From Eledone cirrhosa (Eukaryota): a stretch of DNA of 64,000 bases. Below are positions 27,307 through 28,375 of the stretch, piece after piece. The stretch is from positions 177,630,001-177,694,000 of the forward strand of contig OZ024741.1 in assembly GCA_964016885.1 (NCBI GenBank), read 5' to 3'. Position numbers and translations under genes: made by a program. Numbering within the stretch: position 1 is the first letter of the stretch; the number at the start of each line of letters is the position of its first letter. The notes under the pieces were generated by a model. It was not told the DNA's origin and searched no databases. It saw only the letters and a program-made list of their open reading frames with translations.

Positions 27307-28375
27307 TTGGATTTAATGCTCTGAAATAGCGATATATATGTGAAGACAAACAGAATATTCGAAAATATTCTGTATGTTTATAATAAACATTTTGAAGACC
27401 TAATCGCTATAGAATAGAATACGTCACGTATTACAATTTGAGATTCTCGATAACAGCAAGGGAAGTAACCTACGCGTTTCATTCTTATTAGAAATCATCA
27501 GGATTACATATCCAATGCTTTTATCGAGAACGACACAGCTAGAGACTTATAGAATACTTAGCTGTGTACAGGAACTGGTTTGAAAGAGCGGTACCCGGTC
27601 CGGCAGAAATTAGAATTTGGATTTAATGCTCTGAAATAGCGATATATATGTGAAGACAAACATAGAATATTCGAAAATATTCTGTATGTTTATAATAAAC
27701 ATTTTGAAGACCTAATCGCTATAGAATAGAATACGTCACGTATTACAATTTGAGATTCTCGATAACAGCAAGGGAAGTAACCTACGCGTTTCATTCTTAT
27801 TAGAAATCATCAGGATTACATATCCAATGCTTTTATCGAGAACGACACAGCTAGAGACTTATAGAATACTTAGCTGTGTACAGGAACTGGTTTGAAAGAG
27901 CGGTACCCGGTCCGGCAGAAATTAGAATTTGGATTTAATGCTCTGAAATAACGATATATATGTGAAGACAAACATAGAATATTCGAAAATATTCTGTATG
28001 TTTATAATAAACATTTTGAAGACCTAATCGCTATAGAATAGAATACGTCACGTATTACAATTTGAGATTCTCGATAAAAGCAAGGGAAGTAACCTACGCG
28101 TTTCATTCTTATTAGAAATCATCAGGATTACATATCCAATGCTTTTATCGAGAACGACACAGCTAGAGACTTATAGAATACTTAGCTGTGTACAGGAACT
28201 GGTTTGAAAGAGCTGATGATTTCTAATAAGAAGGAAACGCGTAGGTTACTTCCCTTGCTTTTATCGAGAATCTCAAATTGTAATACGTGACGTATTCTAT
28301 TCTATAGCGATTAGGTCTTCAAAATGTTTATTATAAACATACAGATTATTTTCGAATATTCTATGTTTGTCTTCA
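27307..28375 (-). mobile_element. Three tandem 312-nt hammerhead units plus an inverted partial unit
   Basis: Units at 27307, 27617 and 27929. HHRs at 27465-27507, 27777-27819 and 28089-28131: gtaatc-CTGATGA-tttct-aata-agaat-GAAA-cgcg-TA-ggttac. Inverted arm 28213-28375 starts exactly at CTGATGA. Confidence 0.9.

Follow-up and report, generated by a model that had tools for sequence, protein, structure and literature searches.

A young non-LTR retrozyme insertion with a Penelope-like integration footprint in a TA-rich region of Eledone cirrhosa

The window, a stretch of 64,000 nucleotides analysed at its full length, is a TE-rich animal region in which 61 TA runs cover 17.6% of the sequence. 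Within it, a 312-nt period is repeated in 2.9 copies with 99% matches at 27305–28213 (TRF) and continues directly into a shorter inverted copy, here called the arm (Table 1). The coordinates given for this element in the original prediction are correct. Its description as three nearly identical units holds for the near-identity, since U1–U3 run head to tail at about 99% identity to one another and U2 differs from U3 at 2 of 287 positions; it does not hold for a full trimer, the array being a 2.9-mer with a U3 of only 287 nt. Any target site duplication is unreadable, as the insertion sits inside a microsatellite. Within the 64-kb window the 312-nt unit family occupies a single locus, and an exact 26-nt search for the unit in bacterial and archaeal genomes returned no matches, an expected and uninformative outcome.

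Table 1. Positions of the 312-nt element, its ribozymes and flanks, the sister 474-nt family and the other inverted insertions in the window
Feature	Position	Strand	Description
Degenerate (TA)n run	26027..27306	.	Target microsatellite on the element's 3′ side (TRF, sequence)
Unit 1 (U1)	27305..27614	-	310 nt, 2-nt deletion; 3′-most unit in ribozyme sense (TRF)
Tail	27305..27340	-	34–36 nt of the element's 3′-terminal sequence absent from the arm; 2-nt AT microhomology with the flank
Type I hammerhead 1	27465..27507	-	Core C 27501, H17 27471 (predicted cut after 27471)
Unit 2 (U2)	27615..27926	-	312 nt, complete (TRF)
Type I hammerhead 2	27777..27819	-	Core C 27813, H17 27783 (predicted cut after 27783)
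Unit 3 (U3)	27927..28213	-	287 nt, partial; 5′-truncated 88 nt upstream of its ribozyme core
Type I hammerhead 3	28089..28131	-	Core C 28125, H17 28095 (predicted cut after 28095); long helix I extension fully paired
Inverted 5′-truncated copy (arm)	28213..28374/5	+	162 nt, from hammerhead core to internal TA run
(TA)n run	28375..28543	.	Target microsatellite on the arm side (TRF), then LINE-type RT fragment
474-nt hammerhead tandem	18357..19661	-	2.8 units; 5′ end fused to PLE coding fragment (CX2-5CxxC linker type)
474-nt family, second copy	44955..45470	-	About 1 unit; 5′ end fused to inverted arm of Hydra-type PLE
PLE (RT + GIY-YIG)	32116..35648	.	Inverted pLTR arms with hammerheads, 59-nt tail, TA flanks; same anatomy as the 312-nt element
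Inverted insertions of one family	9268-10977 and 44737-44920		Tail about 78 nt; same terminal point and nearly same arm end in both of two copies
Inverted insertion	24877-26024		Tail about 90 nt
Inverted insertion	36242-36410		Tail about 94 nt
Inverted insertion	38247-38811		Tail 136 nt; inner end about 8 nt upstream of CUGAAGA core
Inverted insertion	39096-40169		Symmetric
Inverted insertion	43625-44722		Tail about 80 nt; inner end 34 nt upstream of CUGAAGA core

The arm begins exactly at the C of CTGATGA at 28213, a base held in common with the end of U3 (1-nt microhomology), and terminates at the sole 8-nt TA run of the 312-nt unit, where 9 of 10 nt are identical between flank and template, the single mismatch falling at position 2. 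Both of these boundaries, the exact start and the merging of an internal TA motif with the TA target, had been recognized beforehand. An additional feature, absent from the original prediction, is that the outer end of the arm lies 34–36 nt short, in phase, of the other end of the element, generating a one-sided tail; the two ends are situated 130 and 164–166 nt downstream of the predicted ribozyme cut. The arm also carries 2 private substitutions in its 162 nt. Fold-back chimeras are common near (TA)n runs, and the proximity of such a run, together with the many inversions in the window, could suggest that the inversion arose in sequencing or assembly; that origin is scarcely credible, however, because the arm is no mirror of the array, showing an 88-nt offset, two private substitutions and no continuation into mirrored sequence, and because nearly the same arm end and tail recur in two independent insertions of a different family.

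All three tandem units contain a hammerhead motif recovered by a pairing-constrained descriptor, while the arm retains an incomplete motif without the helix I 5′ strand. Numbered by the standard hammerhead convention, the predicted ribozyme comprises a helix I of 6 bp plus a long extension, a helix II formed by a U·U and 4 bp, and a helix III of 2 bp with a palindromic 2-nt loop; the U·U takes the place of G10.1–C11.1. The descriptor matches 10 times in the window, whereas neither 60 block-shuffled windows nor 3000 shuffles of the unit give a match. At the Rfam gathering threshold there are no matches in the 64 kb, and the Hammerhead_HH9 model scores the 312-unit hammerheads at 19.8–20.6 bits against a cut-off of 52 (E 0.03–0.06). 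The earlier designation of these ribozymes as canonical is thus appropriate for their helix geometry, helix sizes being what defines canonical metazoan type I motifs, which act as dimers (PMC4209133), and needs qualifying with respect to the U·U, the lack of an Rfam match at gathering threshold and the low HH9 score. Comparison with a sister 474-nt family, described below, supports the predicted fold because 7 of 13 hammerhead pairs are altered on both sides between the two families while 98.5% of cells pair, a covariation that amounts in effect to one between-family comparison. In an energy model that ignores tertiary contacts and Mg, the ribozyme core is trapped in an alternative, inactive fold, with predicted costs of +4.2 kcal/mol per ribozyme for the open monomer form and +10.9 for the double hammerhead; a preference of multimers for the active double-hammerhead fold is not borne out by this model. 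Among predicted Xenopus retrozymes, 8 of 9 failed to cleave (10.64898/2026.07.22.740005).

The 312-nt unit has a GC content of 35% and contains no ORF, its longest stop-free frame reaching 56 aa. The anatomy of the element includes no LTR-type arrangement, and no tRNA genes are detected in the window (ARAGORN). Non-LTR retrozymes are described as non-coding tandems of 150–450 bp units with a GC content below 50% and one type I hammerhead per unit (PMC7229834). By this DNA-level definition the 312-nt element is a non-LTR retrozyme: the expected match in unit size is confirmed, and the low GC, the tandem type I hammerheads and the absence of an ORF fit equally. These are the properties that it shares with the metazoan non-LTR retrozymes of axolotl (Rtz_353), mussel and coral (PMC7229834). 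Structurally, the U·U at the base of helix II and the 2-bp helix III resemble the axolotl HHR_Amex2, whereas the helix III loop contains 2 nt instead of 4 (PMC7229834). The retrozymes of that study are known as expressed circles, whereas the 312-nt element is described here at the level of its DNA; conversely, the inverted arm, the tail and the microsatellite target of the 312-nt element go unmentioned in the main text of PMC7229834.

The arrangement of arm, tail and target instead corresponds to the integration footprint of Penelope-like elements (PLEs). PLE insertions are described as partial tandems with an inverted 5′-truncated copy at the 5′ end and a 30–40 bp tail at one end, often in (TA)n targets (PMC8557442), and Hydra-type PLEs insert in (TA)n (PMC8557442). 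In a rotifer example, a shorter inverted pLTR and a 31-bp tail accompany two pLTRs in direct orientation (PMC3846280). The 312-nt element displays the same partial tandem with an adjoining inverted 5′-truncated copy, and its 34–36 nt tail falls within the published range, the chance of such an offset being 11/312. TA runs border it on both sides, a correspondence weakened by the abundance of such runs in the window. Also shared with PLE insertions is an apparent internal RT start downstream of the hammerhead in a (TA)n or AT-rich target. In contrast to a PLE, the 312-nt element contains no PLE-type RT/GIY-YIG ORF and no PLE homology in the window: no pLTR homology is found within the window, BLASTN of the unit against the rest of the window matches only the 474-family ribozyme and TA-rich sequence, so that no autonomous partner appears there, and TBLASTN/BLASTP searches of the window and of 195 PLE relatives reveal nothing similar at protein level. 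Its ribozyme, with canonical helix sizes, likewise differs from the PLE pLTR type, a minimal form with long helix II and a bulge (PMC4209133). The 312-nt element therefore works like a PLE insertion and is not itself a PLE; it is a young non-LTR retrozyme insertion with a standard PLE integration footprint. Since the element ends resemble those of Penelope-like retrotransposons, PLE enzymes are the probable inserters, and the element is best explained, with good probability, as a non-autonomous hammerhead retroelement inserted in trans by a PLE RT/GIY-YIG protein.

The same end structure bears on mobilization by a LINE. L1-type twin priming gives 5′ inversions with a short deletion, a geometry alike to that of the arm, and a LINE-type RT fragment adjoins the element. 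Yet the element has no poly(A), shares no LINE 3′ end and matches nothing in the neighbouring LINE, both of its ends are internal to the unit, and a tail of the PLE type is described as absent from non-LTR TPRT (PMC8557442), all of which makes this route highly improbable. Two broken LINE-type RT elements, at 28543–30707 and 12427–13403, carry a short simple-repeat 3′ tail and are 92% alike over 978 nt.

PLE coding capacity is present in the surrounding sequence, consistent with PLE-driven insertion of the 312-nt element. Hydra-type ORFs with RWK/RWR, DKT and CxCX5C motifs lie at about 5800–8545 and at 48443–51005, and ORFs of the CX2-5CxxC-linker type at 19603–22788 and 32625–35080; among named relatives, the Hydra-type ORF is closest to one from Argonauta hians (47% over 40% of the query), which makes an octopod host plausible. 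The element at 32116–35648 possesses 1.1-kb inverted arms with hammerheads at 32318 and 35387 that show a bulged base and a longer helix II. Its RT is internally rearranged and retrieves 75 relatives in a protein search, none informatively named, and its tail is similar to the region around the ORF start in the element at 14037–15890. The Hydra-type PLE at 45471–53214 combines an inverted arm, a partial tandem and a long interrupted ORF (RWR, DKT, CxCX5C) with pLTRs that contain hammerhead-like motifs (48185 and 53030). A related PLE family at 19661–23381, 57881–58145 and 61123–61407 includes an (AAC)n-rich insert (about 21885–22445) and solo 3′-end copies, and the copies ending at 23381 and 61406 stop at a nearly identical point in TA. 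Elsewhere in the window, a Helitron remnant at 3082–5319 encodes Helitron_like_N and PIF1 domains, and a SINE-like sequence at 53304 gave a 10-nt GC-rich match that was put down to chance. Partial tandem repeats at 23770–24857, 37000–37501 and 57213–57866, with spacings of about 591, 251 and 483 nt, adjoin TA runs; none passes the hammerhead descriptor, and 57213–57866 contains core-like words.

Self-BLAST reveals 10 inverted-arm insertions in the window besides the 312-nt element, of which seven show a one-sided extension (59–136 nt), one is symmetric and two are fused to the 474-nt family. The one-sided tails of these neighbours exceed the published 30–40 bp, and a PLE ORF is present in just one of the seven insertions. 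Neither an ORF nor a hammerhead was identified in the family at 9268–10977 and 44737–44920; the hammerhead descriptor accepts the insertion at 43625–44722, with a long helix II, and rejects that at 38247–38811. The exact start of an arm at the hammerhead core is confined to the 312-nt element (1 of 11 inverted insertions). As a general rule, inversion at the core is accordingly rejected, the inner ends lying about 8 and 34 nt off in two further cases and the core being far away or absent in the rest, and the exact start in the 312-nt arm is possibly due to chance. At all seven ends examined, the exact TA-flank microhomology run amounts to 0–3 nt. The 312-nt arm is distinguished only by its 9/10 match over 10 nt of flank, against 2–5/10 at the other six ends. 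The proposal of RNA-mediated insertion with the second strand primed near TA microhomology is supported, the 9/10 match having a chance probability of about 1.6% in a post hoc comparison. PLE RT initiation, in contrast, is reported at sites not homologous to the target (PMC11167929), and the termination of the arm at a TA match counts to that extent against the PLE reading.

The sister 474-nt family provides a further connection between hammerhead tandems and PLEs. Its ribozyme has the same architecture as that of the 312-nt family in different letters, and its two loci in the window both have TA-type sequence on the 3′ side. At each locus the 5′ end is joined with an overlap of about 1 nt to an inverted PLE coding arm that ends about 680 or 1780 nt short of the PLE's own 3′ end, and the two fusion points lie 9 nt apart in phase. 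Most simply, these two cases can be read as priming of one target strand on retrozyme RNA followed by a jump to PLE RNA; later insertion of a 474-nt element with deletion of the end of the PLE arm is a less simple alternative. An octamer-like motif occurs once per full 474-nt unit, at 18729 and 19203, just upstream of the 5′ truncation of both copies, and is absent from the 312-nt unit. Octamer motifs are known as snRNA promoter elements.

Published biochemistry indicates how such an insertion might be assembled. In vitro, the Poseidon PLE protein cleaves AT-rich DNA on both strands and extends each of them; its reverse transcription begins at two neighbouring internal sites, which delimit the tail, and proceeds mainly on unprocessed RNA, hammerhead cleavage being unneeded (PMC11167929). 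For the 312-nt element, a donor array would first be transcribed in the ribozyme sense, the minus strand here, and a PLE endonuclease would cleave both strands within a (TA)n run. One 3′-OH would then prime cDNA at an internal site 164–166 nt downstream of the ribozyme cut, spanning 2.9 units through three uncleaved ribozyme sites, while the other 3′-OH, presumably aided by the 9/10 TA match, would start 34–36 nt further upstream in phase and yield a cDNA of 162 nt reaching up to the catalytic core. Head-to-head joining of the two cDNAs, at the observed junction with 1 nt of microhomology, would produce the partial tandem, the inverted 5′-truncated copy and the tail. Under this scheme the RNA template must have been uncleaved at the crossed ribozyme sites. 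A self-cleaved linear monomer is rejected as template, neither cDNA beginning or ending at a cut site. The interpretation of the anatomy as a rolling-circle signature is not sustained, as the same anatomy is standard for PLE insertions (PMC8557442, PMC3846280) and has an in vitro explanation in RT starting at two neighbouring internal sites of unprocessed RNA (PMC11167929).

A further conceivable origin of the arm is self-priming or fold-back of either the nascent cDNA or an antisense transcript; this has been hypothesised for rotifer Penelopes, self-priming having been proposed for head-to-head inverted junctions (PMC3846280). The informative allele of the arm is indeed common to the adjoining U3. 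At the junction itself, however, complementarity is limited to 1 nt with no palindrome, the arm has two private changes relative to U3, and fold-back offers no reason for an outer end 34–36 nt from the other end of the element and at a TA run, so that this origin is very unlikely.

Within the reading of PLE-mediated insertion in trans, what differs is the template. Rolling-circle reverse transcription of a 312-nt monomeric circular RNA, yielding the 2.9-mer together with the arm, accords with PLE machinery and departs from the best explanation solely in this respect. In its favour, the cDNA has an internal start and runs through three cut sites, coral, mussel and axolotl contain abundant retrozyme circles (PMC7229834), and a circle model has already been proposed (PMC7229834, PMC4209133). 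The 2-bp helix III, as part of a dimer-dependent ribozyme, would spare a monomer circle from cleavage, and the circular 312-nt monomer folds stably (MFE −66.9 kcal/mol, z −4.5); the antisense circle folds equally well, however (z −4.25), so that this stability is not strand-specific. The distribution of variants among the units also speaks against the circle. U1 and U2 agree with each other at unit column 152 and differ there from U3 and the arm, which share another base; the U1/U2 variant weakens the long helix in the energy model (−32.3 versus −36.0 kcal/mol), and at column 25 U1 and U2 are alike and differ from U3. Because one monomer circle gives identical units, the shared variant would require two independent hits, and the pattern U1=U2 versus U3=arm has a p of 0.0076 under a single monomer circle in simulations with independent mutations, a value derived post hoc from 5 substitutions, which loses its validity if U1–U2 underwent duplication or conversion once inserted. 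As the pattern does not alternate, a dimer circle is no better fit.

The ends of the insertions point in the same direction. The four 5′ ends of the 312- and 474-nt families lie 0, 88, 65 and 74 nt upstream of the core, none at a cut site, and are not spread round a circle; the clustering within 0–88 nt has a p of 0.003 if that window is fixed in advance and 0.05 for any window, and is what a transcript start would give, which constitutes a weaker hint. Moreover, the main in vitro substrate of the PLE is unprocessed RNA (PMC11167929), and axolotl retrozyme RNA includes linear dimers and trimers besides circles (PMC7229834). Origin from a single monomer circle without later rearrangement consequently appears unlikely from the unit variants, and rolling-circle copying as such is possible, on the improbable side. 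A circle is not required for the insertion, and an uncleaved linear multimer fits at least as well. The earlier proposal of copying from circular RNA therefore stands as a possibility, given the abundance of circles elsewhere (PMC7229834), and falls as an indication from anatomy, with an allele pattern at p of about 0.008.

The similarity of U1 and U2 may also reflect events at the DNA level. A shorter PLE-type insertion, for example of 1.9 units plus the arm, could have been lengthened by unit duplication or gene conversion, in keeping with the 2-nt deletion as the only difference between U1 and U2 and with their sharing of two sites against U3; local amplification by unequal crossover has been proposed (10.64898/2026.07.22.740005). 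Even so, the arm, the tail and the TA junctions still need RNA-templated insertion, and even a 1.9-mer spans two cut sites, leaving local lengthening unlikely as an explanation. The variant pattern accommodates both a heterogeneous linear multimer and a shorter circle-derived insertion in which U1/U2 were later duplicated or converted, two origins that look alike at a single locus. Considered as to template alone, a heterogeneous linear multimer has about even standing, a circle followed by later unit duplication or conversion is a real but lesser possibility, and other routes are distinctly unlikely.

Retrozymes have previously been linked to PLE pLTRs, with the mechanism called unresolved (10.64898/2026.07.22.740005), and PLEs have been named strong candidates for moving retrozymes (PMC7229834). 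The 312-nt element resembles the retrozymes interpreted as PLE derivatives (10.64898/2026.07.22.740005) and non-autonomous Chlamys elements such as MRC1 (PMC8557442) in being a non-coding head-to-tail element, probably moved in trans by PLE enzymes. The evidence differs in kind: in Xenopus it consists of co-occurrence and pLTR homology (10.64898/2026.07.22.740005), and here of junction anatomy without pLTR homology. Tail or junction analysis is absent from the main text of 10.64898/2026.07.22.740005, whose supplements could hold such detail; a term search of PMC7761336, PMC7229834 and 10.64898/2026.07.22.740005 gives no occurrence of the word "tail", and the passages retrieved describe no inverted arm. 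A literature search returned no retrozyme reported with an inverted arm, a tail or a PLE fusion, which is weak evidence, as most subscription papers and Repbase lay outside its scope. Element class and insertion anatomy have each been described previously.

At stake are the identity of the machinery that mobilises retrozymes in animals and the role of their abundant circular RNAs, which may or may not serve as template for transposition. A retrozyme array with a PLE tail and an inverted arm constitutes a junction-level test of the mobilising machinery, and the order of unit variants in young insertions can tell a circle from a linear multimer by genome data alone. Tentatively, and with more doubt than confidence, the loci described here may be taken as evidence, at the level of insertions, for mobilization of canonical-hammerhead retrozymes in trans by PLE enzymes, with uncleaved linear multimers used in place of circles. 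If this is true, the enzyme would be able to begin on retrozyme RNA and switch to PLE RNA in the course of a single insertion, as the two 474-nt fusions suggest, PLEs of two different clades would do so, and the circles would be by-products rather than transposition intermediates.
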